From: an uncultured Candidatus Woesearchaeota archaeon
Lineage (GTDB): Archaea; Nanobdellota; Nanobdellia; Woesearchaeales; DSVV01
DNA length: 64,000 nt
Reading direction: 5' to 3'
Assembly (NCBI GenBank): GCA_963717515.1
Contig: OY970338.1
Coordinates: 1,236,861 to 1,300,860, forward strand
Position numbers and translations under genes: made by a program. The notes under the pieces were generated by a model. That model ran no database searches, was not told the DNA's origin, and saw only the letters and a list, made by a program, of their open reading frames with translations. Below, piece by piece: positions 25,660-61,729 of this stretch (position 1 is its first letter; each line of letters opens with the position of its first letter).

Positions 25660-25660
25660 C

Positions 25661-27516: not shown

Positions 27517-27667
27517 TGACTGGTGAATATCAGCATATCTTATAAAACTTTGGGATTAGATGTTTGTATTTCAAAAAGATTTAAATATTTCCCGTGATTT
27601 TACCATTTTCATGCCAGACGTGTCTATGCAGGGAAACCTGGAGATAAACAAGAAAGAGGGGTTTGTG
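27517..27667. promoter_or_regulatory. Divergent promoter region between the rSAM operon and the Hxs-like genes
   Basis: TTTAAATA at 27590-27597 faces the plus strand. TTTTATAAGATA on the minus strand (about 27537-27548) lies roughly 20-32 nt upstream of the minus-strand ATG at 27516. A GAGGGG SD-like motif precedes the ATG at 27668. Confidence 0.3.
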
Positions 27668-28129
27668 ATGGTCTCTGTGAATCCGAAGATATATCCGCTT
27701 GACGTCGTCCTCTCATCCTCATACATGTTCACTGACAAGAACTATGTCCTTGTTGACGGAGACCCGGAGGAGGAGCTGATTGTCGAGCTCAGGCCGAAAG
27801 ACAAAAATGCCGACATAGAGAAGCTCGGCAGGGACTTCAACAACGAGCTCATCAATTATGCTAATTATGCAGTACGGGCGATACAGAACCAGGGGATGCG
27901 GGAAGCCATAATCCACAGGGTGCTCATGACAAATTCAGCAGGCAGACCGGATTACAGGCAGCCTGTTGAAGAATATCCTGCTGCTGATGAAGAGCTCCTT
28001 GAAGTCGATGCAAAGCCTTGGATAAAATCAGACGAGAAATCAGAGGCCGACTCGCCATGGTTTGACGACCCTGAGGGGATCGCTGTTCCCTGGGAGGAGA
28101 AATATGGGGATAAAGGTAAGAAAAAATAA
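27668..28129 (+). CDS. HxsD-like small protein with acidic C-terminal tail (start uncertain; track ORF begins at 27560)
   Basis: MVSVNPKIYPLDVVLSSSYMFTDKNYVLVDG...GRDFNNELINYANYAVRA resembles the layout and the LLNDYxLRE-type motif I recall for HxsD. Alternative ATGs lie at 27560, 27611 and 27626. Confidence 0.45.
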   Translation: MVSVNPKIYPLDVVLSSSYMFTDKNYVLVDGDPEEELIVELRPKDKNADIEKLGRDFNNELINYANYAVRAIQNQGMREAIIHRVLMTNSAGRPDYRQPVEEYPAADEELLEVDAKPWIKSDEKSEADSPWFDDPEGIAVPWEEKYGDKGKKK

Positions 28130-28319
28130 TGTTCTTGTAAGGCTCAACGAGGAAATCTACTGCAGGGAATGCATTGAGCAGGCTATCAAGGATTTCAAGG
28201 ACGTATGCACAGTGACTGAGAATGAAGACGGCCTCCTGCTCAAGCCAAAGGCGAAGATCGAGCCTGTGAGGCTGGGTTATGAATTTTCCAATTATGTTCT
28301 AGGGCTCATGAAGAATTAG
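28104..28319 (+). CDS. Second HxsD-like small protein
   Basis: 71 aa from the ATG at 28104, preceded by GGAGGAG. It reads VLVRLNEEIYCRECIEQAIKDFKDVC...GYEFSNYVLGLMKN, with the same architecture as the upstream gene. Confidence 0.45.
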   Translation: MGIKVRKNNVLVRLNEEIYCRECIEQAIKDFKDVCTVTENEDGLLLKPKAKIEPVRLGYEFSNYVLGLMKN

Positions 28320-28324
28320 TGAAG

Positions 28325-29704
28325 ATGGCGATAAGTTATTTCGGGGACAAGGAGCAGTATGTACTGAACCATTACAGGTCGAGAGAGATCAAGGCAGGCC
28401 ATCTGGTGACCAATGACTACGGCTCTTGGGCGTTGCTTTCTCCTGATGAATACGCACAGCTCAGGACAGGGGACATCCAGGAGCCTCTTCTGACTCTTCT
28501 GAAGGATAAGGGGATTGTACTTGACAGGGGAAATTTTGCAAATGTCATCGATGATTACAGGAGGAAATGCGACTATCTCTTCATCGGCACTTCGCTCCAT
28601 ATTGTTGTCCCGACCCTGAGATGCAACTTGAAGTGCATTTACTGCCATGCAAGGGCCAAGAGCAGCAGGGCCAAGGGCTATGACATGGATGAAAAAACTG
28701 CGAAAAAAACCATTGATTTCATCTTCCAGAGCCCGACAGGATACATCACCATAGAATTCCAGGGGGGCGAGCCCCTGCTCAGGTTTGACCTCATCAAATA
28801 CATTATTGAATATGCAAAAGAGAAGAACAAGTCCCATAAGAAGGAGCTCCATTGGAGTGTGGTCACTAACCTTACCCATATGACTGATGAGATGTTTGAA
28901 TATTTCAAGAAGAACGGTGTCGGCATATGCACATCCCTTGACGGCCCTAAGGTTGTGCATGATGCAAACAGGCAGATGCATAGCAAGACCAGGAAATGGA
29001 TAAAGAAGATTGTTGATTCTTATACTATCAATGCAATGCTCCTTGCGACAAGGAACACACTGCCATACCCAAAGGAGATAGTTGATGAGTACATCAGCCT
29101 GGGCCTTCCGAGGATATGGATCAAGCCTGTGAACAACCTCGGCGATGCTGAGGGGAACTGGAAGAAGATCGGCATGACTGCAGCAGAATACCTTGATTTC
29201 TGGACAGAGGCGATGGATTATATCGTTACCAAGAACATCGAAGGGGTCCGGATTGAGGAAAATTATACCAAGATAATCCTGAGGAAGATACTGACAAAGG
29301 AATGCGTGAATTTCACAGACCTTGAAAGCCCATGCGGGGCTGCAATCGGCCAGCTCGCGTACAGCTACAACGGAAACATCCATACGTGCGATGAGGCAAG
29401 GCTGTTTGAGATGTTCAAGCTCGGGACAGTGGATGACAGATACAGCGATATAGTCACATCTCCAGGCGCATGTGCAATCACGAGGGCATCGATCAATGAC
29501 AATCCTGTGTGCGAGATGTGCGCCTACAAGCCTATATGCGGACTCTGCCCTGTGTGCAGTTATGCAGAGACAGGAAATATCATATCGAAGCTGCCGAACA
29601 GGCGCTGTGAGATACTTATCGGCATGTTCGACTACATATTTGAAAAGCTTGCTTCTGAAGAAAAATACAGGAAAGTTTTCTTCAGCTGGATAGGGAAAGA
29701 ATAA
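28325..29704 (+). CDS. Radical SAM/SPASM maturase (HxsB-like; anaerobic sulfatase maturase superfamily)
   Basis: About 90-aa N-terminal extension, then RCNLKCIYCHA and FQGGEPLL. The SPASM region is CGAAIGQLAYSYNGNIHTCDE ... CEMCAYKPICGLCPVCSY. The track ORF starts at GTG 28319, and the ATG is at 28325. Confidence 0.85.
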   Translation: MAISYFGDKEQYVLNHYRSREIKAGHLVTNDYGSWALLSPDEYAQLRTGDIQEPLLTLLKDKGIVLDRGNFANVIDDYRRKCDYLFIGTSLHIVVPTLRCNLKCIYCHARAKSSRAKGYDMDEKTAKKTIDFIFQSPTGYITIEFQGGEPLLRFDLIKYIIEYAKEKNKSHKKELHWSVVTNLTHMTDEMFEYFKKNGVGICTSLDGPKVVHDANRQMHSKTRKWIKKIVDSYTINAMLLATRNTLPYPKEIVDEYISLGLPRIWIKPVNNLGDAEGNWKKIGMTAAEYLDFWTEAMDYIVTKNIEGVRIEENYTKIILRKILTKECVNFTDLESPCGAAIGQLAYSYNGNIHTCDEARLFEMFKLGTVDDRYSDIVTSPGACAITRASINDNPVCEMCAYKPICGLCPVCSYAETGNIISKLPNRRCEILIGMFDYIFEKLASEEKYRKVFFSWIGKE

Positions 29705-29761: not shown

Positions 29762-30661
29762 ATGCTGCCGATATTAAAAAAAAAGATAACAGGTTTCATA
29801 CTTAGTGAAGAGGGCAGGATGCCCAAGCAGTCTCTTCTTGCCATGGGCTCATTCCTTTCTGCAGCAGTCATCGGAGGTATTCTTGCGACAAGGGACAATG
29901 CTGCAAGCCATGTGAACAGCCTTGACATCAGGTATGGCACTTCCGAGGGATTAGGGGCTGAGGAGTCCAGGGGATATCATGACCATCATGCAAGCCACAG
30001 TTCACACGGTTCACATAGCAGTCATGGCTCGCATAGTTCACACGGTTCACACAGTTCCCATGGCAGCCATGGGAGTCATACAAGCCATAGCAGTCATGGT
30101 TCGCATAGTTCACACGGTTCACACAGTTCCCATGGCAGCCATGGGAGTCATACAAGCCATAGCAGTCATGGTTCGCATAGTTCACACGGTTCACACAGTT
30201 CCCATGGCAGCCATGGGAGTCATACAAGCCATAGCAGCCATGGTTCGCATAGCTCCCACTCAAGCCATGGTTCCCACAGCAGCCATAGTTCTCACAGCTC
30301 CCACTCAAGCCATGGTTCCCACAGCAGCCATAGTTCTCACAGCTCCCACTCAAGCCATGGTTCCCACAGCAGCCATAGTTCGCATAGCTCCCACTCAAGC
30401 CATGGTTCCCACAGCAGCCATGGTTCTCACAGTTCTCATGGAAGCCACAGCAGTCATGGTTCTCATAGTAGTCACGGGAGTCATACAAGCCATGGTTCTC
30501 ATAGTTCTCATGGCAGTCACTCAAGCCATGGAAGTCATAGCTCGCATGGGAGTCATGCGAGCGGTGGTGGTGGTGGTAGCGACGGCAGTTGTGGTACATC
30601 AGATGGCGATGCTGGCGGTGGCGGTGGCGATGGCGGTGCTAGTTGTGGTTGTGGATATTAG
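29762..30661 (+). CDS. His-Xaa-Ser repeat protein (HxsA-like): N-terminal hydrophobic segment, 64 HxS triplets, Gly/Asp/Cys tail
   Basis: - aa 1-75 contain SLLAMGSFLSAAVIGGILA.
- aa 76-267 are 64 consecutive H-[SGTA]-S triplets (29987-30562).
- The tail is GGGGGSDGSCGTSDGDAGGGGGDGGASCGCGY. Confidence 0.8.
   Translation: MLPILKKKITGFILSEEGRMPKQSLLAMGSFLSAAVIGGILATRDNAASHVNSLDIRYGTSEGLGAEESRGYHDHHASHSSHGSHSSHGSHSSHGSHSSHGSHGSHTSHSSHGSHSSHGSHSSHGSHGSHTSHSSHGSHSSHGSHSSHGSHGSHTSHSSHGSHSSHSSHGSHSSHSSHSSHSSHGSHSSHSSHSSHSSHGSHSSHSSHSSHSSHGSHSSHGSHSSHGSHSSHGSHSSHGSHTSHGSHSSHGSHSSHGSHSSHGSHASGGGGGSDGSCGTSDGDAGGGGGDGGASCGCGY
30041..30256 (+). repeat. 72-bp tandem repeat x3 inside the HxS gene
   Basis: The units 30041-30112 and 30113-30184 are identical. 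The third unit (30185-30256) differs only near its end. Each unit encodes 24 aa. Confidence 0.9.
30251..30430 (+). repeat. 45-bp tandem repeat x4 inside the HxS gene
   Basis: agctcccactcaagccatggttcccacagcagccatagttctcac occurs at 30251-30295 and again, identical, at 30296-30340. The units at 30341-30385 and 30386-30430 carry 1-3 substitutions. Each unit encodes 15 aa. Confidence 0.9.
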
Positions 30662-30761
30662 ATAATGAATTATAATTTTTTCAAAATTATTAGATTTACC
30701 ACTTTGTAGGGGTATTAATTTCGAAACATTTATAAATTATTAAATATTATTAGTAAAAATA

Positions 30762-31838
30762 ATGATGATGGAAATACATTCAAAAAAATTATATACGCAA
30801 TTAATATTAAACATTATGTCCTTTTTCTATATTGGTTGTACTACAACTGGACCAACCAAACCAAATGTTAATATCTTTTCTAATCCGAATGAAACAGGAA
30901 AATCAGTTGCAAGAATGCAAGAAACTTTTTCAGTTGCTAATGAAGTCTTATTTGAGTTAACACAACAAAATCCGTTAATCACAAGCGAGTTAGGTAAATT
31001 ACCTGAACTTCAGGATGGAATTTCTAAATCTGAATTAATATCACTTGAGAAAATTGTAAATATATATAAAAATAACAAAAAAAAATTTGAAGAAGCATTT
31101 AGCCAGATGTATCAAGTGGGAAAACCTAATTTCAGGAAATATTGTTCACCATTACAGGCGTTTTTTTGGCTTATTGAAGACGGTAAAGTAAATATCGCTC
31201 AAGATACAATAAAAAATTATTCTCTTGATAATTTGCTGGAGAATTCATGGGATTTCCGGTTAAAGACAATTACTTTTTCAGATGACCAAATCTCATCAAT
31301 CATTGAAAATACCAGTGATAACAAATGGCAAAAATTATACAAAGAGAATGTTTCCGACAAGAATTTTTTACAAAGATTGATATTGATGAAATATGAAAAA
31401 AATCCGGGAATATATAATGGTAAAGCTAAAAATATAATTAAAGATGAATTATCAAATCAGCAAGATGATAAATGGTCTAATTTTGATAAAGTTTCAATAA
31501 GATTAAATTCACCTGAATTGATTGATTTTTGGACTCAAAAAAATTTAACCTATTCTTTTTATTTAGGTACTATGAAATCAAACCAATCAATTTTTAAATC
31601 AAAAAATGGAAATTGTGAAGATACATCAAGTTTCATAGTTAATTTATTGAGAAAAGCTGGATATGAAGCAAACACTTTGGATGTAGTGTCAAAGGACCCT
31701 AATGTACCATTCCACGTGATTGTTAAATACCAGATAAATGATAGTTTTTATCTTATGGATAACGGGACTTTTATTCCGGCAGGAATTATGGGCCCTTTCA
31801 AATCAATGAAAGAAAGCAGCTATAAACTTCATTATTAG
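30762..31838 (+). CDS. Lipoprotein-like protein with C-terminal transglutaminase-like Cys-protease core
   Basis: N-terminal hydrophobic segment ending in FFYIGC. The C-terminal NGNCEDTSSFIVNLLRKAGYEAN ... FHVIVKY ... LMDNG fits the Cys-His-Asp transglutaminase-like pattern. Confidence 0.55.
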   Translation: MMMEIHSKKLYTQLILNIMSFFYIGCTTTGPTKPNVNIFSNPNETGKSVARMQETFSVANEVLFELTQQNPLITSELGKLPELQDGISKSELISLEKIVNIYKNNKKKFEEAFSQMYQVGKPNFRKYCSPLQAFFWLIEDGKVNIAQDTIKNYSLDNLLENSWDFRLKTITFSDDQISSIIENTSDNKWQKLYKENVSDKNFLQRLILMKYEKNPGIYNGKAKNIIKDELSNQQDDKWSNFDKVSIRLNSPELIDFWTQKNLTYSFYLGTMKSNQSIFKSKNGNCEDTSSFIVNLLRKAGYEANTLDVVSKDPNVPFHVIVKYQINDSFYLMDNGTFIPAGIMGPFKSMKESSYKLHY

Positions 31839-31883
31839 CTTTCTCATTTTCTATTTTATCATAAAGTTTATTTTTTTAATAAA

Positions 31884-33077
31884 TCATCTTTCATACTGAA
31901 CAAACTGCTTCTCAATAAAATCAACATATTCTTTAAATCTCTCATATTTTTGAGAAAAATGATATGCGTTCTTACCTAATTTTTTGACTATTTCAGGATT
32001 GTCGATGACATATTCCATCTTTTTACTGAAACCATCTATGTCTCTCGGGTCTATAATAAGGATATCTTCATTATCTCTTAAAGTTGAATAAATGCCTTTT
32101 TTCAAGACACCTTTTCCGATTATCGTGCATACACCGCAGGCCATTGATTCCCTAGCTATTTTTGGGTAATGGGTTCCTATTGGCAGATATGGGGATTCTT
32201 CTGATTCAGGGCACAGAACGCATGTTGATGCCCGAATCAAAGAGGGTATCTTCCATGGCGGTTGAAAAGGCAAAAAAATACATTCCTCACTTAGACCTAT
32301 CATTTCAGCTTTCTTTTTCAGTTCATCAACTTTCTGACCTTCACCAACGACAAAGAGCAGCCTGAAATCCTTCTTGATTTTTTCAGAAGCCTTAAGGATT
32401 GAATAAGTCTGTTTCAACCTCGATATCTTACCAAAATATGTGAATATCGGGATGGATGGGTCGTCAATATAAGTTGATAGGTCGTATGGCTTCACATCTG
32501 GATTAAAGAATTCAGGATTAATCAGCTGTTCAACACCATGTAGTTTATTTGTTTCAATTTTATTCTCTTTCAATATCTTCGAGACATTGCCACCTCCAAA
32601 TACTTTATCTGCTTCCCTAAATGCCTCAACGAAGATTGTCTTTAGATTTTTCGAATAGTACAGTTTCCCAACATCTGAACCAGCACATTTGAGGACATGC
32701 GGTACTTTTGTGATTTTTTTCAAGAGGTAACCTACTATACCATAAGGAAGTGTATAATGCGAATATATGAGATCAATTTCCTGTTTTCTGATAAGGTTTA
32801 TTGACAAATTCAATAATTTTTCACAGAAATATTTTGATCTGAGAATCGGCGAATTAAAATCAGGTGCTGTACTGAAAACTTTTACATTTGTCGGTTCAAT
32901 AAATCTATTCTCATCCTCTGAAATCAGTTCACGAAATTCAGATTCGACTTCCCATGCATTGGTAATAATGCTGATTTCATGCCCTCTCTGTCCGAGTTCC
33001 CGAGCAAGCCAGTACGTATCTGAGGATACGCCTCCCTGGATGGGCGGGTATTTACTGAGAATGCATATTTTCATCAA
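31884..33077 (-). CDS. GT4-family (GT-B) glycosyltransferase
   Basis: MKICILSKYPPIQGGVSSDTYWLARELGQRGHEISIITN is the N-terminus typical of GT4 enzymes. The C-terminal region has the acidic E...E motif (PESEESPYLPIGTHYPKIARESMACG). Confidence 0.75.
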   Translation of the reverse strand: MMKICILSKYPPIQGGVSSDTYWLARELGQRGHEISIITNAWEVESEFRELISEDENRFIEPTNVKVFSTAPDFNSPILRSKYFCEKLLNLSINLIRKQEIDLIYSHYTLPYGIVGYLLKKITKVPHVLKCAGSDVGKLYYSKNLKTIFVEAFREADKVFGGGNVSKILKENKIETNKLHGVEQLINPEFFNPDVKPYDLSTYIDDPSIPIFTYFGKISRLKQTYSILKASEKIKKDFRLLFVVGEGQKVDELKKKAEMIGLSEECIFLPFQPPWKIPSLIRASTCVLCPESEESPYLPIGTHYPKIARESMACGVCTIIGKGVLKKGIYSTLRDNEDILIIDPRDIDGFSKKMEYVIDNPEIVKKLGKNAYHFSQKYERFKEYVDFIEKQFVQYER

Positions 33078-33127
33078 AATATAAAATACAATAATGTTTA
33101 TATAATTTGCTTAATTCTGATATCATA

Positions 33128-34249
33128 ATGATCCAAAACTTGCCAAAACCAAAGAGTTTCACAATGCAGTGGCATATCACTAACAGGTGTAATTGGGCCT
33201 GCAGCCATTGCTATCAGGATGGAAATGCTATTGAAGAGCTGGAAATGGATAAGATTTATGACATCATGGACCAGTTTATCGGGCTTTTGAAGAGATGGGA
33301 TATACCAGAGAATCGGGCCAGGATAAACCTGACTGGCGGAGAGCCGTTGCTTCACAAAGGATTCTTTGATATAGCAGACCGACTTAAAAATAATTCGAAT
33401 TTTCTGAGATGGGGGGTGCTTTCGAATGGTTCCTTGTTGACTAAAAATATTGTCAAAAAATTGAAGGATGCAGATATATTCAGATATCAGATCAGTCTCG
33501 AAGGACTTGAAGAAACCAACGACCAGATCAGGGGCAAAGGGACATATAAAAGAGTGATAAAATCTATCAGATTACTGAAAGATGGCGGGGTCAATACTGT
33601 CGTCTCCCTTACACTTACAAAAAACAATGTTCATGAGATTCCTGAACTAGTCAAAGTCCTTGATAAACTGGGAGTCACGTATCTCGGAACAAGGAGACTT
33701 ATACCCATTGGAAGAGGTTCAAGCCTCGGACTGCTGGAGCCAAATGAATTAAAGAAATATTACCAGGAAACCATAAAAATTAATAAGGAATTGAGAGACA
33801 GACAAAGCAGGCTTAGGGTTGGGATTGGCTGTGAAAGCGGGATTTTCAATGAGAATACCAGACTGAATAATTATTGTGCAATTCTGGATGGTAGAATAAT
33901 CATAGTAATGCCGAATGGGGATGTGCTTCCCTGCAGGAGACTGCCTGTAGTCCTTGGCAATTTGAAAAATAAAAGCCTTTTTGAGATATATTATTCGTCT
34001 GAAGAGTTATGGAAAATGAGAAACCTGAACAACGCTCATGTATTCTGCAAATCATGCACTAATTTCAATCAATGTTTTGGAGGAGCAAAATGCGTGAATT
34101 ACTGTTATGCTAATAAATTGTCAGTTCCGGATGTGCAGTGCTGGAAGTATTTTGACAGGATAAAAAGTCTGGAACAATTCAACAAATATGTCGATAATAA
34201 TGAGAAAGAGGTTAAGCTTCATAAAATATTGGAAAATGCAAAACCATAA
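33128..34249 (+). CDS. Radical SAM/SPASM enzyme
   Basis: Contains HITNRCNWACSHCYQ and LTGGEPLL. The SPASM region is CAILDGRIIIVMPNGDVLPCRRL ... CKSCTNFNQCFGGAKCVNYC. The track start 33107 is TTG, and the ATG is at 33128. Confidence 0.85.
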   Translation: MIQNLPKPKSFTMQWHITNRCNWACSHCYQDGNAIEELEMDKIYDIMDQFIGLLKRWDIPENRARINLTGGEPLLHKGFFDIADRLKNNSNFLRWGVLSNGSLLTKNIVKKLKDADIFRYQISLEGLEETNDQIRGKGTYKRVIKSIRLLKDGGVNTVVSLTLTKNNVHEIPELVKVLDKLGVTYLGTRRLIPIGRGSSLGLLEPNELKKYYQETIKINKELRDRQSRLRVGIGCESGIFNENTRLNNYCAILDGRIIIVMPNGDVLPCRRLPVVLGNLKNKSLFEIYYSSEELWKMRNLNNAHVFCKSCTNFNQCFGGAKCVNYCYANKLSVPDVQCWKYFDRIKSLEQFNKYVDNNEKEVKLHKILENAKP

Positions 34250-35126
34250 ATTTCCAGGCAGGATAATCAATGCAAGCAAAAGACCCCGGGGTCAGGGGAT
34301 TGATTTATGCTTCCGATGCAATAACAGATGCATTTTCTGTTATGACAATCATAAGAGAAATGATATCTCTGACAAACCCTTGGAGCAAGCAAAAAAAGAT
34401 GTATTGGCCTTAAAGAAGAAAGGAATAAATATCATTTCTCTAAGAGGCAGTGAACCTACTATCTATCCTCATATCTATCAGCTTGTCAGCTTTATCAATA
34501 ATCATGGCCTGAAATTCAGGATGACGACGAATGCCCGGATATTTTCATATGTCGAGACAGCTAAAAAATTTGCATCATTAGGTCTTGATAATGTCTATGT
34601 TTCCCTGCATTCTCATAAGGCAGATATACATGACAAACTGACTCAGACAAAAGGCAGTTTCGATCAGACCTTAAAAGGAATTAAAAATTTGCTCGCTTCT
34701 GGTGTCAGAGTTGAGACCAATACAACGATTTTAAAGCAGAATGTGGAAGATCTACCAAAGATTACACAACTGTTGTCACGATATGGCTTGTTTAGGGCGA
34801 GGTTTTCTTTCCTTTTCTGTGAGGGTGTTGGCTTGGATATAGGGTGGTGGAAAAAACTAATGCCTTCCATTGCCGAGACCCGGGAAAGCCTGTCTGAAGC
34901 AATGAACATCTTTCAGGTGAGAGGCATATACTCTTTTATTGAGAAACTGCCAATATGCGGTGCACCACAATATTATCGTGATTTCAAGCCTGAGGATTAT
35001 GTAATTGCCGCAAACATCAAGCCGGAAATATGCCAAAAATGTGCTTATCACAAAGATAACTATTGTGTCGGAGTCAGTCCCATGTATCTGAAAATGTATG
35101 GGGAAAAAGACCTGATACCTCAATGA
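34236..35126 (+). CDS. Radical SAM enzyme, short family with C-terminal Cys module
   Basis: Contains CFRCNNRCIFCYD, LRGSEPT, TTNARIF, LPICGAPQYY and CQKCAYHKDNYCVG. The internal ATG at 34236 overlaps the upstream gene by 14 nt; the track start is 34188. Confidence 0.8.
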   Translation: MQNHKFPGRIINASKRPRGQGIDLCFRCNNRCIFCYDNHKRNDISDKPLEQAKKDVLALKKKGINIISLRGSEPTIYPHIYQLVSFINNHGLKFRMTTNARIFSYVETAKKFASLGLDNVYVSLHSHKADIHDKLTQTKGSFDQTLKGIKNLLASGVRVETNTTILKQNVEDLPKITQLLSRYGLFRARFSFLFCEGVGLDIGWWKKLMPSIAETRESLSEAMNIFQVRGIYSFIEKLPICGAPQYYRDFKPEDYVIAANIKPEICQKCAYHKDNYCVGVSPMYLKMYGEKDLIPQ

Positions 35127-45225: not shown

Positions 45226-46791
45226 ATGGAAGGAGAAGAATTAAAACGAATTCTAATTGACTCAGCAATAAAATTTAACCAGGGAGTTCAACCGAACGGC
45301 AAACCCTGTTCATGGATTGCAGACTGCAGGGAAGTCCTGCTTATTCCGAGAGGAGCATATCTAATATCAAAACTTATTTATGAAAAGCTCAGGAAATTCA
45401 AAAGCAGGCAGGTAGGAGGCCTGACTCTTGCTGCAAACCCTATTGTGTCGTATCTTGTTTTGCTCGCTTATCAGGATAAGAGACCTGTCAGCGGATTTAT
45501 CATAAGAAAAGAGCCAAAGTATAACGGGCTTCAGAAACTGATTGAAGGTGATTTCAAGCCAGGTGAACCAGTTGTTCTTGTTGATGACCTGATAAACTCA
45601 GGCGGTTCTATATTCAGGGCAATTGAAGCAGTTGAGGAACAGGGATGTAAAGTGGAAGGAGTGTTATCAATACTAAATTTCGGGAACCAAGGAGAGAAGA
45701 AGCTCAAAGAAAAAGGATATCGATTTGAATACTTGTTCACTCTTGAGGATTTGGGGGTAAGGAATAAACCCGAAAACATAATCATGCCGAAAATTCTCTG
45801 GGAAATTAAAGACATTAATATGTGGGAGGGTACAATTCCAAGATCATCTCCTGTCCAGTTCAAAAAATCGATTTTATTTGGTACAAATGAAGGAAAATTT
45901 TTTTCGCTTCAAATGAATTCAGGGAAGATTAACTGGGAAAGACAATTTGATATAAGTGTTCCGAAAGGCATATTATCCTCACCAGCTATAAAAGAAAATA
46001 ATGTCTATTTCGGTGCATATGACGGATTCCTGTATTGCCTGGATGCAAAGACAGGAAAGACAGTCTGGAAAAAACAGCGTGGTGACTGGATAGGTTCCTC
46101 ACCCTATATCTCAGGTGGTGAATTATTCATCGGAGTTGAGTATGGAAAAAAAGGAGGGGTGCTGATTGCCTGTTCTGTAAAAGATGGGAAACTGTTATGG
46201 TACCTTGAGACAGGGCATTATATCCATTCTACTCCTGCAGTGGACTCAAAAAGAAATGTAGTTATTGTCGGTTGCAATGACGGATTTGTATATGCTGCTG
46301 ATTCAAAGACAGGGAAACTAATATGGAAATATGAAACAGGAAAGGAGACGCGGGCTGGGTTTGCAATCGATGAAAAAACTGGGAAAGTTTATTTTGGGAG
46401 CGAAGACGGGAACATGTACTGCTTTGAAATCAGTAACGGGAATCTTATATGGAAGAGGAGAGTGGGTTTCGCAGTCTATAATACACCTGAGATTGTGGAC
46501 GATAATCTCGTGTTCAGCACAGTATCAAGGAGGATTTTCTGCCTTGACAAGGAAACAGGTTCAATCAGATGGTATTACAACACAGAAGGAAGGATATTCT
46601 CTTATACATATACTGTTGACAATAGAGTCTATTGCGGTTCAAATAACGGGTATCTGTATGTGATTGAACTCTCTACAGGCAAACTTCTTGGAATATATAA
46701 AGTCGGGAAGGAAATACTGACTAAACCTCTGATGGATGGAAATAAGGTTTATATAGGGTGCAAAGGACAATTTATTTCTATTATTATTTAA
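45226..46791 (+). CDS. Phosphoribosyltransferase (OPRT-like) domain fused to a PQQ/BamB-like beta-propeller
   Basis: N-terminal type I PRTase motif PVVLVDDLINSGGS. The C-terminal 330 aa or so carry repeated xVYFGxxDGxxYxxDxxTGKxxW blades (at least 6). Confidence 0.7.
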   Translation: MEGEELKRILIDSAIKFNQGVQPNGKPCSWIADCREVLLIPRGAYLISKLIYEKLRKFKSRQVGGLTLAANPIVSYLVLLAYQDKRPVSGFIIRKEPKYNGLQKLIEGDFKPGEPVVLVDDLINSGGSIFRAIEAVEEQGCKVEGVLSILNFGNQGEKKLKEKGYRFEYLFTLEDLGVRNKPENIIMPKILWEIKDINMWEGTIPRSSPVQFKKSILFGTNEGKFFSLQMNSGKINWERQFDISVPKGILSSPAIKENNVYFGAYDGFLYCLDAKTGKTVWKKQRGDWIGSSPYISGGELFIGVEYGKKGGVLIACSVKDGKLLWYLETGHYIHSTPAVDSKRNVVIVGCNDGFVYAADSKTGKLIWKYETGKETRAGFAIDEKTGKVYFGSEDGNMYCFEISNGNLIWKRRVGFAVYNTPEIVDDNLVFSTVSRRIFCLDKETGSIRWYYNTEGRIFSYTYTVDNRVYCGSNNGYLYVIELSTGKLLGIYKVGKEILTKPLMDGNKVYIGCKGQFISIII

Positions 46792-46843
46792 AGTATGTAA
46801 ATTTTAAGTAATATTTTTAAGCATTAGTTCATTCTCGTCTATA

Positions 46844-47410
46844 ATGAATAAAATATTGTTTGACAAAATGACAGATGATTGCAGCTGTTGCGGAAACCAA
46901 ACACTTTCTGAGGAAAGTGATTATGATTTAACTAAGAAACAACATTTTCTAATTAAAATAAAAGATATTTGGGATGTATACAAGAATATAAAAAATACAA
47001 AGCAAGATATATTGATTTCATTTTTCCTGAAAGAGAATGACCTTAATCTTTCAACTGGGAAAAAAATATTGAAATTATTTGCTAGATTAAGGAAAGATAA
47101 TATCAGTTTCAAGGTATTGAATCCTCTACCAAGATGCATCCTTGGTTTTGGATATGGTGAAGCAGTAAATGAATTCAGCCTGCCGAAGGGCTGCTATGAA
47201 TGCAGGGAACTTTTCACTATAAAGAATGAAGAAATCATCAGCTGCAGGTATATAAATAAAAAAGGTCCAAAGATATATTACATGAAAGATAGGAATCAGA
47301 TTTGGGAGTTTTTCAACACCTTGAGATTGGAGAAGGACTTGACCAAGACATGCATCAACTGCTTATATCTGAAAAGGAAACTGTGTGATGGGGTTTGTTT
47401 TAGATCATGA
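46844..47410 (+). CDS. Stand-alone Cys-module protein related to the C-terminal domain of the short rSAM family
   Basis: CSCCGN near the N-terminus, then GKKILKLFARLRKDNISFKVLNPLPRCILG ... CYEC ... CINCLYLKRKLCDGVCF. No rSAM core. ATGA overlap with the downstream B12-rSAM gene. Confidence 0.55.
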   Translation: MNKILFDKMTDDCSCCGNQTLSEESDYDLTKKQHFLIKIKDIWDVYKNIKNTKQDILISFFLKENDLNLSTGKKILKLFARLRKDNISFKVLNPLPRCILGFGYGEAVNEFSLPKGCYECRELFTIKNEEIISCRYINKKGPKIYYMKDRNQIWEFFNTLRLEKDLTKTCINCLYLKRKLCDGVCFRS

Positions 47411-48693
47411 GGGTATTGCTTCTGACATACAGGAACAGAAAAGAATATGTTCCACTGGATTTAGGATACGTGAAAGCATATTGTGATAAATCCAATAATC
47501 AGGATGAGATTATTGTCAGGACTTATTCAAAAAGAGATAATATATATCTATTCAAAAAAAAAATTGAAAAGCTTGAACCTGAGATGATAATTTTTTTTAC
47601 TGAGAATCTCCAAAGCACCCAGCTATTCACGTTGAGGTTTGCTTTGAAACTGTTTTCAATTCTCAGAACTAATGACAAAAAAATCAAATTATATTTACAA
47701 AGCTATAAAATTGACAAGGAATATTCAAAAGAAATACTGGAAGAACACTCATATGTTGATATGATAATTCGAGGAGAACCTGAAATAACTATAAAAGAAA
47801 TTCTTCTGGGAAAAAAATTGAATACAGTCAAAGGTATATCATATCGGCTGAATGATATGATTCAGGTTAATGCTGAGAGACATTTATTGGATACTCTTGA
47901 TAATCTCCCTTCACCCTATCTGACAAACTCCATGAAAAGTGAATATGTTAGCAAGATGAAGCAGGCTTATGTCTCAACATCAAGAGGCTGTATATTCAAT
48001 TGTTTCTATTGTTTCAGGAATGTCAGGTTTTCCAGGGTCCGGACTATTTCAATAAAGAGGGTCCTCGATGAGATAAAATTCCTGATGTGGAGCAGGGTCG
48101 AAAGCATTTATATCATCGACGATTGTTTTTTCCTGAATCAGAAAAGGTTCAATGAGCTGGTAACTGAAATTTCAAAAATAAATAAAAATAATAAGCTCAG
48201 TTTCGCTCTGATGTGCAGGTATGAGTTCTTATCAGAGAAAAATATGGATCTAATGAAAAAAATGAATGTCAGACGGATACAGGTAGGTTTGCAGACAACC
48301 AATCTTAAATTACTCAAACGACTTAATAGAAACTTTGATGAAAAAAAGTTTTATAAGACCGTCGAATATCTGAATAAATTGGAAATATTTACTACTGTTG
48401 ATCTGATACTGGGTCTGCCTGGTGACAATCTTAGGAGTTTTAAAGAATCTCTGGATTATCTTGGCAAGGTCAATCCTGACCAAGTCAGAGTTCATAGATT
48501 GTTTATACATCCCGGCACTTACTTGGACAGGAACCTTGAAAAATATAAGATAAGATTATCATATAAAAACAGGGATTTTTCACTGCCTGTCGTCAAGAGC
48601 AATTATAGCTTTCCCAGTGATGAGATACAGATGGCATTGAGGTATATCAAGAAGGTAAAGAAGAGAGGTAAAAACATAGTCCTGACAAATTGA
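47407..48693 (+). CDS. B12-binding radical SAM enzyme
   Basis: N-terminus MRVLLLTYRN...PLDLGYVKAYC, rSAM SRGCIFNCFYCFRN and ILGLPGDN. Confidence 0.85.
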   Translation: MRVLLLTYRNRKEYVPLDLGYVKAYCDKSNNQDEIIVRTYSKRDNIYLFKKKIEKLEPEMIIFFTENLQSTQLFTLRFALKLFSILRTNDKKIKLYLQSYKIDKEYSKEILEEHSYVDMIIRGEPEITIKEILLGKKLNTVKGISYRLNDMIQVNAERHLLDTLDNLPSPYLTNSMKSEYVSKMKQAYVSTSRGCIFNCFYCFRNVRFSRVRTISIKRVLDEIKFLMWSRVESIYIIDDCFFLNQKRFNELVTEISKINKNNKLSFALMCRYEFLSEKNMDLMKKMNVRRIQVGLQTTNLKLLKRLNRNFDEKKFYKTVEYLNKLEIFTTVDLILGLPGDNLRSFKESLDYLGKVNPDQVRVHRLFIHPGTYLDRNLEKYKIRLSYKNRDFSLPVVKSNYSFPSDEIQMALRYIKKVKKRGKNIVLTN

Positions 48694-48762
48694 ATCTGGG
48701 TCTAAGCGCTCCAATATATCCTTTCCGACAGGTTTAAATAATTCCAATATCTTAAAATTCCC

Positions 48763-50280
48763 ATGTCACTCTATCAATCCTCAATTCTCTACATCCTCCA
48801 TATCCTATTCTTCTCGATCATCATCCTCGTCATCCTGAACCGCAGGACCCTCATAAAACCATTCAAAAAGATCAGGAAAAAGACCCTTATTTACCTGCTC
48901 ATAATCTTCATTGCAGCATGCGCCCTTAGGCTGTTCATCTTCCCCCATTTCCACATGATGTACATCGACGAGCCATGGTACCTGGAGATGGCAAAGAACA
49001 TGAACCAAGGGCATGGGCCGGTCGTTTGTGAATACCAGGGCATCGAAGAACAGGTCTGCCTTGCCCCTTTAAAGCCCCCAGGATGGCCCTATCTTCTGTC
49101 ATGGGTGCAGATGCTCTTTGGGCTCAACAATCAATTTTCGCTGTATTTCGGCAGTATTTTGGGCTGCCTCTCCATAATCCTAATTTTTTCAGTGACATGC
49201 CTGTTGTTTGATGAGAAAGCAGCTCTCTGGGCCTCATTCATCCTTGCCTTTTCACCCATGCATGTTATCTGGTCAAATACAATAGAGTCCAACAGCCCGT
49301 CAGTATTCTTCATCCTGCTCTCGATGCTCTTATTCCTCCACTATATAAGGAACAGAAGGTTATCATCATTTGGTCTTTTTTTCCTGGCAACAGCATTCTC
49401 CACCATGATAAGGTTTGAGAATATCATCCTGTTTCCGATCCTTGCACTTGCCTATCTGATATATTCAAAAAAGTTCCAAAAGTCAATTTATGGGAAATTC
49501 TTCGATGCATCCTACCCCCTGGTCGTTATATGTATGTTTGGTGTCATGATATTCTTTGAATCCATATATTTCCATATGTTCAGGGACACTGCACTCACCT
49601 TGGATCATTTTATCCTGAACCTGCCTGGATACCTCTATTCAATGGGCATCGTTACAGTCATCGCCCTGGCAGCGTTGTTCTTGTATGATAAGGGGGATTC
49701 AAAGGATATTAAGATCATTATGACATGTTTCCTGTTTTTCTTTATAACTTACCTTCCGCTGTTCAAGGAGATTGAGCAGAGGATGGTCCTGACACCCCTT
49801 GTGTTCGCAGTCATCCTTTCAGGATACACCATGGGGAAGATAAGCAGCCACCTGCCTCATACCAGGATACTGTTTTTCCTGCTCCTCTCAATCATATTTA
49901 GCCTCGGACTGGTACATGTCTACAATCAGCCAAGGTTCGCCTCGCACAAGCTCGAGACTGACATTGTCATGGACATTGCAGATAAGTATCAGGAAAGTTA
50001 CATCATCTCAGAAGCGCCGACAGTGCTCAGCTCTGTCTCTGATATAAGTGGGATAAGCACTGCATTTGCCCTGGAAAATCCGGAAGTGATTGAGATTATC
50101 CAGAAGAATCATAAGGTATATTATTTTTTCGATGGTTTCTGTACGAATCAAGGGATTGCTGATGCAGGGAGATCAGAAGAGCGATGCAGGGAGATGTTCA
50201 GGAGTTATGTTATGAAATCCATTGAAACGTTTCATCAAGGAAATTACAATTTTATCCTGTATTCCACTGAAAGCCGATGA
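48763..50280 (+). CDS. GT-C fold membrane glycosyltransferase (family 39/83-like)
   Basis: 505 aa and polytopic. It has an acidic first-loop motif (YIDEPWYLEMAKN), PPGWPYLLSW and a soluble C-terminal domain. It is a paralog of 17396..19012. Confidence 0.6.
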   Translation: MSLYQSSILYILHILFFSIIILVILNRRTLIKPFKKIRKKTLIYLLIIFIAACALRLFIFPHFHMMYIDEPWYLEMAKNMNQGHGPVVCEYQGIEEQVCLAPLKPPGWPYLLSWVQMLFGLNNQFSLYFGSILGCLSIILIFSVTCLLFDEKAALWASFILAFSPMHVIWSNTIESNSPSVFFILLSMLLFLHYIRNRRLSSFGLFFLATAFSTMIRFENIILFPILALAYLIYSKKFQKSIYGKFFDASYPLVVICMFGVMIFFESIYFHMFRDTALTLDHFILNLPGYLYSMGIVTVIALAALFLYDKGDSKDIKIIMTCFLFFFITYLPLFKEIEQRMVLTPLVFAVILSGYTMGKISSHLPHTRILFFLLLSIIFSLGLVHVYNQPRFASHKLETDIVMDIADKYQESYIISEAPTVLSSVSDISGISTAFALENPEVIEIIQKNHKVYYFFDGFCTNQGIADAGRSEERCREMFRSYVMKSIETFHQGNYNFILYSTESR

Positions 50281-50326
50281 GGAGCCAGCATAATGTTTTT
50301 ATATTCTGACGGATTCAGGAAGCCAG

Positions 50327-51760
50327 ATGGCAAAACCGAGGATTCAGCTGGTCCATAAATACATGTATTCAAACGAAGTTTCTTTGGGAGTCAGTGTGTT
50401 GGACTCATTTCTTCGTGAGAAAGGTTATGAAGTAAGACAGCATTCGATCGAGGCAGAACCGGCTTATGTGAATCCTCTTCTGGTCAGCAGGTTCCCTTAC
50501 AGCAAACTCGTCTGCAGACTATCCAACTCTTTAAACAAGATCATGCTGGATTCAGATCTGAATTTCCCACTGACCCTCCACATTGACAATGAAATAAGTA
50601 AGATGTCAATCAAAAAGAACGATATCATCGGTTTCTCTGTCCATTCCAAATTCCAGCTGATATATTATCTGCTCCTGGCAAAAAGGATTAAAAAAAAATA
50701 TAGTGTGACAATAGTCTTTGGAGGACCGTATATCGGCCTCTTTCCAGAGCTGATTGACATGAAAAAATATTGTTTTATAGACTATCTTGTAAAAGGCAGA
50801 GGGGAACTGCCTTTCCTTAGATTGATTGGTTGTATCGAAAAAAATGAGAAGAGAATTAGCACTCCAAAAGTCAATTACAATCCTGAAAAAAGGATGCTCT
50901 TTTCTGTGAAAGAGCCGGGACTGGGGATGCAGGCTGTTCCAAATTATGAGAAGAAGCGTATTGCAAGAATCAGGAAAAAAAGATTATTCCAGGGTCATTC
51001 AGGGCTTTCTTACCAGATATCAACAGGGTGCCCGAACAGGTGTGGTTTCTGCATGTATCATATGATTGAGAAAATTGAATTTAAACCCGTAAAGCAAGTA
51101 ATTGAAGAGCTCCAAGAGATCAGTAAAAATACACTGATCAGAAAATACAGGTTCACTGATTCTGCAATAAATTCAAAAAGAAGCTATCTTGTGGAATTAT
51201 GTAATGAGATGATTAAAGAGAGATTGAATTTTAATTTTTCTGCTTATGCAACATTTGGTATTATGCCTGAAATTCTACGACTCATGAGAAGAGCGGGTTT
51301 TTTCAACTTGTTATATGGGATTGAGACTGGCAGCAGAAGGATCCATAAGCTTATGGATAAGTCGCATACTTTTGATATCATTCAAAATAGCCTTGAAGAG
51401 ACAGCCTCTGCAGGGATCAATAATGTCATATGCATAATGATTGGATATCCTCATGAGACTGATGATGACGTTGATTTGACAATAAGATTCATAAGAAAGA
51501 ATAAAAAGTTGATAACGAGAGTACTTTTGACAAAATTTCAATTGCTTTACAACTCAAATATGTATACAAATCCTGAGAGATATGGCTTAAAGATTATCGG
51601 GATGTATTCGAGGCATGATCCTGAAACAATGAAGTTTGATGAGGTAGATGGATTGAAATGGGAAAAATATATCAGACAGACAAACAAGAATATCAAGAAG
51701 ATGATGAAATTTCTGGATAGATACAAAATTTCTTTCGGTTATGATCCAAGGTTCCTTTAG
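50327..51760 (+). CDS. B12-binding radical SAM enzyme
   Basis: N-terminal B12-type domain, rSAM STGCPNRCGFCMYH and IMIGYPHETDDD. Confidence 0.85.
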   Translation: MAKPRIQLVHKYMYSNEVSLGVSVLDSFLREKGYEVRQHSIEAEPAYVNPLLVSRFPYSKLVCRLSNSLNKIMLDSDLNFPLTLHIDNEISKMSIKKNDIIGFSVHSKFQLIYYLLLAKRIKKKYSVTIVFGGPYIGLFPELIDMKKYCFIDYLVKGRGELPFLRLIGCIEKNEKRISTPKVNYNPEKRMLFSVKEPGLGMQAVPNYEKKRIARIRKKRLFQGHSGLSYQISTGCPNRCGFCMYHMIEKIEFKPVKQVIEELQEISKNTLIRKYRFTDSAINSKRSYLVELCNEMIKERLNFNFSAYATFGIMPEILRLMRRAGFFNLLYGIETGSRRIHKLMDKSHTFDIIQNSLEETASAGINNVICIMIGYPHETDDDVDLTIRFIRKNKKLITRVLLTKFQLLYNSNMYTNPERYGLKIIGMYSRHDPETMKFDEVDGLKWEKYIRQTNKNIKKMMKFLDRYKISFGYDPRFL

Positions 51761-53139
51761 ATCTTTTTAATAAACTCGAATTTGCCAGATTTCGTCCTGG
51801 GAATCGATTTTACATATTCAATCCTTAAATCCGGATGTTTTCCAAAAAAACTGCGGAGAGTACTAATAATCTGGTCATGATGCTTCGGGATATATTTTTT
51901 TCTTTTGACTATTTTCAAAATCAACTTATCTTTAGAGTGTAGGAACTGGCATTCCTTTATCTCATCAATTTCATCCAGCATCTTTGAGAGCGTATTTGCA
52001 TTGGTGTATCTTTCCCCTAGCTTGATGATATCGCTTTCCCTTGCCTGAAGATTTGTAAGGGCCGGCAGACCATCTAATATCTTCCTAGAACCTAAGTCGC
52101 TGGTCTCAAACCTGATCAAAGGCATTGAATAATTCACAAGGCCCGTGGCTATTATTCTCCCAGCATCTCTTATCTGCTTCCCTTTATCATCCACAATCTC
52201 GAATATCCCCATATAATGGTCGCAGTCAAAATAATCTTTTCCTGGCGATTTTAATGCCCTGAAAACACATTCCATCTGGCCGTACTGGTTGAATATCCTG
52301 CAGCCAAAGACTTCCTGGATCTTCTTTTCCTGGAATGGGAATAAGCTTTCCCTATCGCTGATCATGACATCAAAACCTATGTCGATATCTTTTTTTTCAG
52401 CATACTGTGCAGCCAAATACATCAGGCTTGGCATGCAATTGATGTATTTTGGCTTGAATTTTTTCATAAGATCCAGAAATAGCCTGATATCCTTCTCATT
52501 GTTTGCAAGGGCTGAGAAAAGGACCTTTCTATAGATTGGATGTCTTACAATTTTCTTCTTCTTGAGATTCTTGTTTTCAAGAAAATAATTTGAAAAGACA
52601 CTGATATGCCTGTCAGTCAACCTGAGCCCGATGTCCTTGACCAATCTCTGATGGACAATATGCCTGATTGCATCTACCTGTATATCCAGCAGGAACCTTG
52701 TCGGAGTCCCTGTTGTTCCGCTTGTCCTTTGAATTATTGGTCTTCCATGATACATCCTTCTTGATTTTAATCCATCAAAGTTCTTGACCAGCAATTCCTT
52801 TGTCAAAACAGGGATCCTCTCAAGGTCTTTGAACTTTTTGATATTTTTCCAGTCAATCCCTTCCCTGTCGAACAGTTCCCTGTAATAAGGGACATTCTCA
52901 TGACAATGCTTCAGGAGCTTTCTCAACCTTCTCATCTGATGCTTCTCATAATCAATCCTGAACATGGTGTTGTTGTAGAACACGATAAATTTCAATAGGA
53001 TATAATCCAATCCGAAGTTGTACCAGGGAACCCAGAGCCTGATGAGCATGAAACTTATAAGGTCCTGGATAAATCCAGGCGATGCGAGATAAATCCTGTC
53101 AGAGAGTTTCATCGATAGCCTGTATCTTTTCTCCATCAA
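51757..53139 (-). CDS. Adenylate-forming enzyme, phenylacetate-CoA ligase/F390 synthetase/CapK-like
   Basis: Contains TSGTTGTPTRFLL (the AMP-binding P-loop-like motif of the PaaK family) and the N-terminal helical region typical of this family. The C-terminus is RTKSGKFEFI. Confidence 0.7.
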   Translation of the reverse strand: MMEKRYRLSMKLSDRIYLASPGFIQDLISFMLIRLWVPWYNFGLDYILLKFIVFYNNTMFRIDYEKHQMRRLRKLLKHCHENVPYYRELFDREGIDWKNIKKFKDLERIPVLTKELLVKNFDGLKSRRMYHGRPIIQRTSGTTGTPTRFLLDIQVDAIRHIVHQRLVKDIGLRLTDRHISVFSNYFLENKNLKKKKIVRHPIYRKVLFSALANNEKDIRLFLDLMKKFKPKYINCMPSLMYLAAQYAEKKDIDIGFDVMISDRESLFPFQEKKIQEVFGCRIFNQYGQMECVFRALKSPGKDYFDCDHYMGIFEIVDDKGKQIRDAGRIIATGLVNYSMPLIRFETSDLGSRKILDGLPALTNLQARESDIIKLGERYTNANTLSKMLDEIDEIKECQFLHSKDKLILKIVKRKKYIPKHHDQIISTLRSFFGKHPDLRIEYVKSIPRTKSGKFEFIKKI

Positions 53140-53205
53140 TCAGGGGAGCCATAAATCATTTATAAATCTGTCAGCTATTGGATGGAAAAAACATTGATTT
53201 TTGAA

Positions 53206-54717: not shown

Positions 54718-54792
54718 TCGGATTTAAAGTCTGGTTATATAGAAGAATATTTATAGGTTTGGGAATATGCATCCCTGAGTCAGACATTGAAA

Positions 54793-55971: not shown

Positions 55972-56006
55972 AAAGGTATATAAATTTTGATTCAATCACC
56001 CTATAC

Positions 56007-57152: not shown

Positions 57153-57155
57153 AAA

Positions 57156-58067: not shown

Positions 58068-58069
58068 AA

Positions 58070-59464: not shown

Positions 59465-59470
59465 AATATT

Positions 59471-61727: not shown

Positions 61728-61729
61728 CA

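Follow-up and report, generated by a model that had tools for sequence, protein, structure and literature searches.

Why should an AT-rich stretch of about 18 kb, carrying a second set of enzyme families that are also encoded beside it, begin directly behind the gene of a His-Xaa-Ser (HxS) repeat protein in an archaeal chromosome? The question is raised by 64,000 nucleotides of DNA, hereafter the window, from an uncultured Candidatus Woesearchaeota archaeon (assembly GCA_963717515.1, contig OY970338.1), whose genome was studied as one contig (C1) of 1,838,930 bp with the window at C1:1236861-1300860. The window begins with a ribosomal-protein operon, and from ~16 kb to past its end it holds a dense cluster of genes for radical S-adenosylmethionine (rSAM) enzymes, glycosyltransferases and related proteins, in which the AT-rich island occupies positions 30662-48762. 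A sequence-only reading of the window had placed three explanations side by side, namely lateral transfer from a relative of lower GC that possesses the same toolkit, a chimeric assembly, and a strong local mutational bias. We consider it probable that the island was acquired laterally from AT-rich DPANN relatives of the Woesearchaeota/Nanobdellota type, as a mosaic of cassettes in a variable spot downstream of the HxS-repeat gene HxsA, and that this probably took several events. The observations that carry this reading are a break in composition, the physical continuity of the DNA, the lack of orthologues in congeners, and the affinity of the island genes to low-GC homologues.

The G+C content of the island is 0.335, compared with 0.466 in the left flank (1-30661), 0.420 in the right flank (48763-64000) and 0.461 in the genome, and the AT-rich island proposed from the sequence is thereby borne out. 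Among 18-kb windows across the genome, the 1st percentile of G+C is 0.3205 and the 5th percentile 0.395, and the lowest windows comprise this island and a handful of others. A two-segment maximum-likelihood scan placed the left change point at 30654 (log-likelihood gain 176), at the HxsA stop codon (30659-30661), where G+C falls by 12 points in ~100 bp at the gene boundary. The right change point was placed at 48408 (gain 102) by the same type of scan, and the rise at this edge is gradual, as 200-bp windows pass 0.45 only from ~48.8 kb. An abrupt switch had been described for both ends; the description holds for the left one, whereas the right one is softer and lies at ~48.4-48.8 kb. Per-gene G+C at third codon positions (GC3) is 0.55-0.66 in the left flank and 0.23-0.44 in the island, returns to 0.57 in the GT-C glycosyltransferase gene at 48763, and ranges from 0.41 to 0.52 beyond it. 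The run of low-GC3 genes reaches 51760 if the gene at 50327-51760 past the GT-C gene (GC 0.368, GC3 0.414) is counted, and the region past ~50 kb is intermediate and patchy, as had been noted.

The deviation is not confined to base composition. Tetranucleotide usage, corrected for base composition, correlates between the island and the genome with r = 0.84, the 7th lowest value of 101 windows of 18.1 kb, in comparison to r = 0.97 and 0.96 for the flanks. The relative synonymous codon usage (RSCU) of the island also deviates from that of the ribosomal operon (r = 0.39), the left flank (0.38) and the genome (0.46), whereas the ribosomal, left-flank and genome gene sets agree among themselves with r = 0.95-0.97 (left flank vs genome, 0.97). 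Moreover, FYMINK residues make up 0.396 of the island proteins vs 0.340 in the left flank and GARP residues 0.166 vs 0.202, indicating that the compositional difference extends past silent sites. The break is thus significant in GC, GC3, tetranucleotides, RSCU and amino-acid usage alike.

Such a contrast could be produced by assembly if the DNA of a co-occurring low-GC organism had been joined in, for example through the repetitive HxS array, and the left break does lie ~100 bp past a 576-bp array of near-identical repeats (29987-30562), a classic assembly hazard. Continuity was examined with contigs of a Logan assembly from run ERR11571143, which was made by a different assembler. Its contig ERR11571143_448 (36,137 bp) corresponds to window coordinates 30392-66528 with 2 mismatches (30559 and 53081), and it holds both GC breakpoints, the whole island with both stop codons of an rSAM pseudogene, and native right-flank genes. 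The left-flank contig _223469 ends at 30058, leaving a gap of 333 bp (30059-30391), which means that the Logan assembly itself breaks within the HxS array, between 30058 and 30392, as a chimera might lead one to expect. However, the genome has only one HxS array, and the two contig ends fit together as complementary halves of one gene. The breaks at 30654 and ~48.4-48.8 kb stand in a single contig that reaches genes syntenic with a congener (G001), each of the ~nine further low-GC islands of the genome would require two false joins of its own, and the estimated contamination is only 1.9%. A chimeric assembly is therefore exceedingly improbable and essentially excluded, and with it assembly error as the cause of the doubled enzyme families. 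Since one Logan contig crosses both breakpoints and both flanks are syntenic with congeners, we can conclude that the island truly belongs to the chromosome of this archaeon, with native sequence to its left and right. The array also disrupts other short-read assemblies, as the HxsA gene of a second congener (G003) contains a run of N and the HxsA of G001 has only 89 aa and few repeats, possibly through collapse; repeat numbers derived from metagenome-assembled genomes (MAGs) are thus unreliable.

How far the native DNA extends could be deduced from the three congeners (G001, G002 and G003), which are fragmented MAGs of 70-210 contigs and 86-90% completeness. The rSAM/SPASM maturase HxsB of the left flank shares 71%, 65% and 56% identity with its counterparts in these genomes, and its GC3 resembles that of the congeners' genes (0.58-0.74), unlike that of the low-GC homologue (0.32). 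On the left, the genes of 25147-29704 have their orthologues on contig G003:C14 in unchanged order, with identities of 52-77%; on the right, G001:C28 is syntenic with 55944-63905 and further at 41-71% identity, and the stretch without synteny to congeners continues to ~55.9 kb. Synteny on the left side stops at the HxsA stop codon. Past HxsA, G003:C14 (which has an ATPase gene between HxsB and HxsA) continues with an rSAM/SPASM gene, a twin rSAM gene and a glycosyltransferase gene, and G001:C61 with genes for a polysaccharide deacetylase, a membrane protein and a PP-loop ATPase; these genes have G+C contents of 0.40-0.51. Both contigs end 3-5 kb further, leaving the right anchor unlinked.

Orthologues of the island genes were likewise lacking elsewhere in the related genomes. 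With the distinctive island proteins as a concatenated query against 40 relatives, the best matches reached 41-43% identity (the phosphoribosyltransferase (PRTase)-propeller protein in G002 and the 30762 protein in G003), and the Cys-module proteins 35120 and 46844 found no match in these 40 genomes. In the three congeners, a further concatenated query found no more than 34% identity for the rSAM enzymes and the methyltransferase, and no match at E ≤1e-15 for the family 4 glycosyltransferase (GT4) and the SPASM enzyme. Within the genome itself, the nearest paralogues of the island genes sit in the flanks at 23-34% identity. The island had been called a second set of the same enzyme families; the same families are indeed present in the flanks, but a recent local duplication of flank genes is rejected, as identities between the paralogues are below those to external homologues.

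The nearest relatives of the island genes show 45-65% identity, are partly syntenic, and all lie on contigs of 32-38% G+C from uncultured organisms; the named sources among these contigs are DPANN archaea (Woesearchaeota), and several of the contigs carry Hxs cores. A first cassette (A, 31884-36175), which would unite a GT4 gene, a SPASM rSAM gene, a short HxsC-like rSAM gene and a Cys-module gene, is collinear with Logan contig L036 (G+C 0.376) in the same relative orientations, with identities of 54, 56, 58 and 45%, respectively. Partial synteny is found on L041, L045, L042 and L044 (G+C 0.34-0.38), and the SPASM enzyme shares 44-48% identity with homologues on L040, L041, L042, L043 and L045, which together with L036 have 35-38% G+C. 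The cassette A genes have GC values of 0.37-0.39 and GC3 values of 0.34-0.44, in comparison to 0.37-0.40 and 0.40-0.42 for the low-GC homologues. Similarly, the PRTase-propeller protein (45226) is 58-65% identical to proteins of metagenome contigs, of which the readable ones (L023, L025 and G065) have 0.32-0.34 G+C, in contrast to 41% identity for the congener copy, which lies on a 50% G+C contig of G002 and has a host-like GC3 of 0.59. For the 46844 Cys module, the counterpart on L023 (48% identity) is the C-terminal portion of an rSAM gene that neighbours an Hxs core, and the RSCU of the island correlates with that of the genes of L023, a Woesearchaeota contig of 34% G+C, with r = 0.85.

In a tree of short rSAM enzymes, island 34188 joins the L036 and L045 homologues (Shimodaira-Hasegawa-like approximate likelihood ratio test, SH-aLRT, 100) apart from the flank paralogues, flank 26623 joins its G003 orthologue (SH-aLRT 99), and island 36226 falls in a third, long-branched clade. 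The comparison of island and flank paralogues that had been suggested thus groups 34188 with low-GC homologues. Most HxsB-carrying genomes of DPANN archaea and of the candidate phyla radiation (CPR) have 26-38% G+C, with the host genus at ~45-51% being a GC-rich exception, and potential AT-rich donors are therefore plentiful. Taken together, the absent congener orthologues, the relatives at 32-38% G+C and the RSCU correlation support lateral acquisition from lower-GC relatives with the same toolkit. In base composition, codon usage and amino-acid bias, the cassettes would still resemble low-GC genomes, and they may have entered by recombination at a hotspot, either by replacement through the conserved flanks or by illegitimate insertion.

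Some records met in this survey deserve mention on their own. Four HxsB loci (L047, L048, L051 and L053) come from MAGs labelled 'uncultured Methanosarcinales archaeon', but the loci are DPANN-like, with 26-36% G+C and identities of 43-59% to the HxsB of the window, and the labels appear doubtful. Logan contigs from SRR22388255 and SRR22388259 (L038/L039; 30% G+C) hold another rSAM supercluster with ~8 rSAM genes, a GT2 glycosyltransferase, a CapK-like adenylating enzyme, a methyltransferase and a C11 peptidase; its likeness to the right flank of the window suggests that rSAM superclusters are a recurring genomic theme. The PRTase-propeller family is widespread, with 2186 matches at E ≤0.001 among 8000 scored candidates, including homologues of 36-40% identity labelled Paceibacterota and Chloroflexia, and in DPANN it stands repeatedly beside Hxs cores or rSAM superclusters (L023 10001-11590; G002:C3 2159-5145, L128; G065:C39, L026 and L034).

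The island could alternatively be an old resident region, in which genes ancestral to the genus were kept AT-rich by a local regime (for instance AT-biased mutation under relaxed selection, in accessory genes of weak expression, or a selective advantage of AT-rich DNA) and were lost from, or missed in, the congener MAGs. Such a regime would be consistent with a wider tendency of these loci: where 10 kb of sequence is available on either side of HxsB, G+C is lower downstream than upstream in 20 of 23 loci, by a mean of 3.7 points (Wilcoxon p = 0.001; the 23 loci were drawn from the L046-L092 neighbourhoods and are phylogenetically non-independent). This drop is strongest in DPANN and CPR (Gracilibacteria) genomes, and the window has the largest, of 12 points. 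Furthermore, the rSAM pseudogene signals relaxed selection, several island genes have no close relative anywhere, as would be the case for fast-evolving residents, and the tree of the PRTase-propeller family is compatible with orthology to the G002 copies. Against it stand the abruptness of the left break at a gene boundary, a fall of 12 points in ~100 bp, and the shift of amino-acid usage along with GC3. An unrelated low-GC contig has collinear homologues of cassette A (45-58% identity) whose GC and GC3 are the same, and the congeners offer at most 32% or nothing. G001:C61 and G003:C14 continue past HxsA into different genes, and the flank paralogues have the composition of the host despite being members of one cluster with the island genes and presumably of a similar expression class. 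A resident origin is accordingly rather unlikely. A local mutational regime as such is unlikely as well, since the strong local bias proposed earlier fails on the absent orthologues, on the amino-acid shift and on a composition that follows phylogenetic affinity.

Within the framework of lateral acquisition, at least three cassettes make up the island, which is a mosaic and not a single block. Its genes alternate in strand, and G+C changes block by block over a range of 0.285 to 0.393, from 0.285 in the first gene (30762) to 0.37-0.39 in cassette A, 0.31-0.35 in 36226-44438, 0.39 in the PRTase-propeller gene and 0.32-0.34 in 46844-48693. A second cassette (B) would comprise an HxsC-like rSAM, a methyltransferase, two B12-binding rSAM enzymes, a nitroreductase fusion and a TPR protein, and a third (C) the PRTase-propeller protein, a Cys-module protein and an rSAM enzyme. 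The block-wise GC, the strand changes, the rSAM pseudogene and a partial rSAM fusion point to a flexible region with several insertions and some decay.

A foreign composition and a sharp left edge would also suit an integrated mobile element, such as a provirus, plasmid or integrative element, with the rSAM genes as cargo. The searches for its hallmarks, however, came back empty, which counts against such an element and at the same time deprives lateral acquisition of a visible vehicle. No integrase, transposase, capsid, terminase or replication gene was found in the island with Pfam, NCBIfam and PHROGs, the last of which matched generic domains only; neither island end has a tRNA gene, the only tRNA-like gene lying at 11717-11817; flanking direct repeats of ≥16 nt do not exceed the chance level (18-32 nt at 67-94% identity); and megablast against collections of 50,697 phage and 72,556 plasmid records returned nothing. 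Such mobility signatures are frequent in horizontally acquired islands but are no requirement for them. An Rfam scan gave nothing at gathering scores, and PADLOC matched only generic rSAM, TPR and PRTase models, its best match in the island being PDC-M51A, at 61 bits, to a B12-binding rSAM enzyme. Since the island is, in addition, a metabolic and tailoring toolkit that elsewhere adjoins chromosomal Hxs cores, an integrated mobile element is very unlikely.

Apart from the missing mobility genes, tRNA target, repeats and phage or plasmid matches, other points weigh against lateral acquisition. The genome-wide absence of the island genes from the congeners is weak evidence, because binning tends to lose atypical islands, and the direct evidence of absence is limited to the two congener contigs that run past HxsA. 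No donor was found, the best match to any island gene in public data being 65% amino-acid identity, and among 5.8 billion proteins nothing exceeded 32% for 36226 or 41% for 37782. A query with 35120 against genome contigs gave no match in the donor search, and 400 order-level genomes, with 2 candidates scored for each, yielded only relatives of the PRTase-propeller protein and of the B12-binding rSAM enzymes. The PRTase-propeller tree resolves nothing within the archaeal clade, where the congener copies form long branches of deviant composition, so that formal support is lacking either way and orthology with these copies is possible. The lack of a close donor suggests that the transfers were probably not recent or came from unsampled lineages.

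The island contains 16 genes or gene remnants on both strands, and the enzymes listed for it in the sequence-only reading were correct throughout. Its rSAM content consists of two HxsC-like short enzymes, one SPASM enzyme, three enzymes of the B12 class and one pseudogene, which are accompanied by two Cys-module proteins, a fusion of a nitroreductase with a partial rSAM domain, the GT4, a SAM-dependent methyltransferase, a TPR protein and a PRTase fused to a beta-propeller. The first gene (30762..31838, plus strand) encodes a lipoprotein-like protein with a weak match to the transglutaminase core; it is the lowest-GC gene of the island, and its best congener match has 34-43% identity. It is followed by the four genes of cassette A, namely those of the GT4 (31884..33077, minus strand; Pfam PF00534), the rSAM/SPASM enzyme (33107..34249, plus strand), the short HxsC-like rSAM enzyme (34188..35126, plus strand) and the first Cys-module protein (35120..36175, minus strand). 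The last has a large helical domain and belongs to a very rare family, with 32 relatives among 1.84 billion representatives and a best identity of 46%. Its AlphaFold2 (AF2) model has a predicted local distance difference test score (pLDDT) of 83, exceeding 90 in the helical domain (130-340), and a Foldseek search of this model against the PDB gave no fold match (best E 0.33, TM-score ≤0.31).

Further right, the genes of the second, highly divergent HxsC-like short rSAM enzyme (36226..37116) and of the class I SAM-dependent methyltransferase (37158..37781) lie on the plus strand, and two genes for B12-binding rSAM enzymes on the minus strand. The product of the first of these (37782..39317) has a best external identity of 41%, with 34% to a congener and 34% to its closest own-genome paralogue, and that of the second (39310..40743) is TIGR04190-like with a weak rSAM core. 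The nitroreductase fusion (40893..41858, plus strand) contains only the N-terminal half of the rSAM domain, and the TPR protein (41869..43314, minus strand) is membrane-anchored. Between the TPR gene and an 84-aa open reading frame (ORF; 43569..43823, minus strand) lies an unannotated Cys-rich ORF of 49 aa with the pattern CxxC ... C ... C (43359..43508, minus strand), which had no family match in a library scan and could encode a small zinc-ribbon protein or a peptide substrate. The rSAM pseudogene (43848..44849, minus strand) is a single frame with an intact CxxxCxxC motif that is interrupted by TAA (44691-44693) and TAG (44523-44525); stop-codon recoding was considered for it and rejected, as the two internal stops differ and ordinary genes use all three stops. 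All genes of cassette C are on the plus strand and encode a type I PRTase fused to a PQQ/BamB-type beta-propeller (45226..46791), a stand-alone Cys-module protein (46844..47410) whose gene overlaps the next by 4 nt, and an rSAM enzyme of the B12-class lineage that has no match to the B12 domain (47407..48693). At the right edge, the GT-C (PMT_2) membrane glycosyltransferase gene with host-like GC3 (48763..50280, plus strand; 42% identity to G003:C73) separates the island from the satellite low-GC gene (50327..51760, plus strand), which encodes a B12-binding rSAM enzyme, the closest own-genome paralogue of 37782.

The native DNA to the left of the island holds, by its family matches, a bona fide His-Xaa-Ser system. 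It includes an HxsD-like protein (27560-28129; TIGR03976, 45 bits, just below the cut-off of 50), the HxsB maturase (28319-29704; TIGR03978, 434 bits, cut-off 370) and, as the left anchor of the island, the native HxsA-type protein with 64 His-x-Ser repeats (29762..30661, plus strand; NF038313 HxsA4, 96 bits, cut-off 55), and a divergent operon of HxsC-like rSAM genes lies upstream. A second, paralogous trio of host-like composition is present at 1324.6-1326.5 kb of the genome (~87.7-89.6 kb past the window start), with identities to the window copies of 45% for HxsB, 42% for the HxsD-like protein and 31% for the A24-like peptidase, and despite this trio the genome has no second HxS array. In G002, the orthologue of the second HxsB (on G002:C3) is followed by two PRTase-propeller genes. 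Further left, ARAGORN reported a 101-nt tRNA-like gene at 11717-11817 with an undetermined 4-base anticodon loop (ctat), which overlaps the start of an ORF at 11711-12181 and is probably an intron-containing archaeal tRNA.

What could the island do at this place? Quite possibly, at close to an even chance, it supplies accessory tailoring enzymes for glycosylation, methylation and radical chemistry on the HxS-repeat protein or an attached surface glycan. This suggestion comes from the recurrence of island families beside Hxs cores and from the two island rSAM enzymes that best match HxsC. Around HxsB, HxsD and an A24-like peptidase on L023/L024 (GCA_016784105.1) lie genes for a PRTase-propeller protein, a TPR protein and an rSAM enzyme with the 46844-type Cys module; on G065:C39, the PRTase-propeller gene follows an A24-like peptidase gene; and on L044, a homologue of the SPASM enzyme lies near HxsB and HxsC. 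HxsC (TIGR03977) is the best NCBIfam match of both 34188 and 36226, yet their scores of 123 and 155 bits lie far below the family cut-off (268), by which the two are HxsC-like subfamilies rather than HxsC equivalogs. In the tree they also fall outside the clade with 26623, the flank rSAM that is nearest to the HxsB-adjacent HxsC-like gene of L044. As for genes of glycan type, the island itself has the GT4, GT-C (PMT_2) genes are present at 17396 and at 48763, and genes for a DegT aminotransferase and a GT2 follow further right, but most island genes encode rSAM enzymes. The GT4 together with the PMT_2-type GT-C genes at the edges would be in keeping with O-glycosylation of an exported protein rich in Ser, and through tailoring of this kind the lineage would have a chemical version of the HxS product that is its own. 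It counts against the suggestion that the case for tailoring of HxsA or a glycan is one of gene neighbourhood alone.

The canonical HXS antiphage system of Pseudomonadota, HxsD-HxsB-HxsC-HxsA (TIGR03976-03979), is reported to consist of four genes, with five HxS repeats plus a domain that binds peptidoglycan, 99.7% of the systems being found in Pseudomonadota; expressed in E. coli, it stops phage DNA entry through an HxsA that has been matured by rSAM enzymes (Li et al., Nat Commun 2026, PMC13128918). The left flank of the window resembles it in encoding HxsB, an HxsA-type repeat protein and an HxsD-like protein, but it differs in the 64 repeats, the archaeal host and the dozens of extra rSAM, glycosyltransferase and B12-binding rSAM genes, and an antiphage role could be proposed for it only by analogy. 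Like horizontally acquired and defence islands, the island has lower G+C than its host, unusual codon and k-mer usage, a decayed gene and no counterpart in relatives; unlike them, it has no tRNA target, integrase, direct repeats or specific defence-family match. A further likeness to a defence island is its position next to an Hxs system, as the bacterial form of this system defends against phages (PMC13128918).

A closer comparison can be made with flexible genomic islands, for which 'replacement' and 'additive' types have been described (Lopez-Perez and Rodriguez-Valera, Genome Biol Evol 2016, PMC4898812). As in these, a fixed spot by conserved genes holds quite different genes in related genomes, which may be of one broad functional class, and glycosyltransferases or modification enzymes, the lack of mobility genes and a probable import from other taxa are further resemblances. 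In contrast to them, rSAM enzymes dominate here instead of sugar-nucleotide pathways, and the product may be a modified protein (HxsA) and not a polysaccharide; the comparison is also one between species of a genus known from MAGs, not between strains, with the right anchor unlinked in the congeners. The O-antigen and capsule loci of bacteria are likewise mosaics of laterally exchanged cassettes, AT-rich compared with the chromosome and framed by conserved genes, with glycosyltransferase genes and hypervariability between close relatives. The island differs from them in having no Wzx, Wzy or sugar-nucleotide synthesis genes and in the dominance of radical SAM chemistry.

Of the ~nine further low-GC islands of the genome, four (G+C 0.28-0.33) were sampled by Pfam and contain defence or glycan genes, namely Wzy/Wzx at 627-641 kb, HsdR and GmrSD at 837-872 kb, SIR2-STAND at 1578-1588 kb, and an AAA_5 dynein-type ATPase (PF07728, a family that includes McrB) with a type I R subunit at 1816-1839 kb. 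By their domain content, the sampled islands look like defence and glycan islands. A low-GC accessory island such as the one described here corresponds to the ordinary genomic-island pattern for defence and cell-surface functions (PMC4898812); laterally acquired accessory islands of low G+C are common, and the compositional feature in itself is routine.

The consequence for this locus is that the rSAM supercluster of the window is not one co-evolved operon set, as it would consist of a native core and an imported 18-kb insert, and functional inference from gene neighbourhood must separate the two layers. The PRTase-propeller protein, the Cys-module proteins and the GT4-SPASM-rSAM cassette are candidates for chemistry on HxS-repeat proteins. 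It is conceivable, although we hold it to be speculative and on balance doubtful, that the HXS locus of DPANN archaea and CPR bacteria generally combines a conserved core (HxsD, HxsB, HxsA and an A24-like peptidase) with a hypervariable, AT-rich tailoring region downstream, whose rSAM, B12-rSAM, glycosyltransferase and PRTase-propeller cassettes are swapped laterally under pressure from viruses. The island described here would then be one of these exchanged sets. If this were true, each lineage would decorate its long HxS-repeat surface or defence protein differently, in a protein-based analogue of O-antigen (glycotype) switching, and the bacterial HXS antiphage system would extend to archaea and CPR bacteria in a more elaborate and diversifying form.

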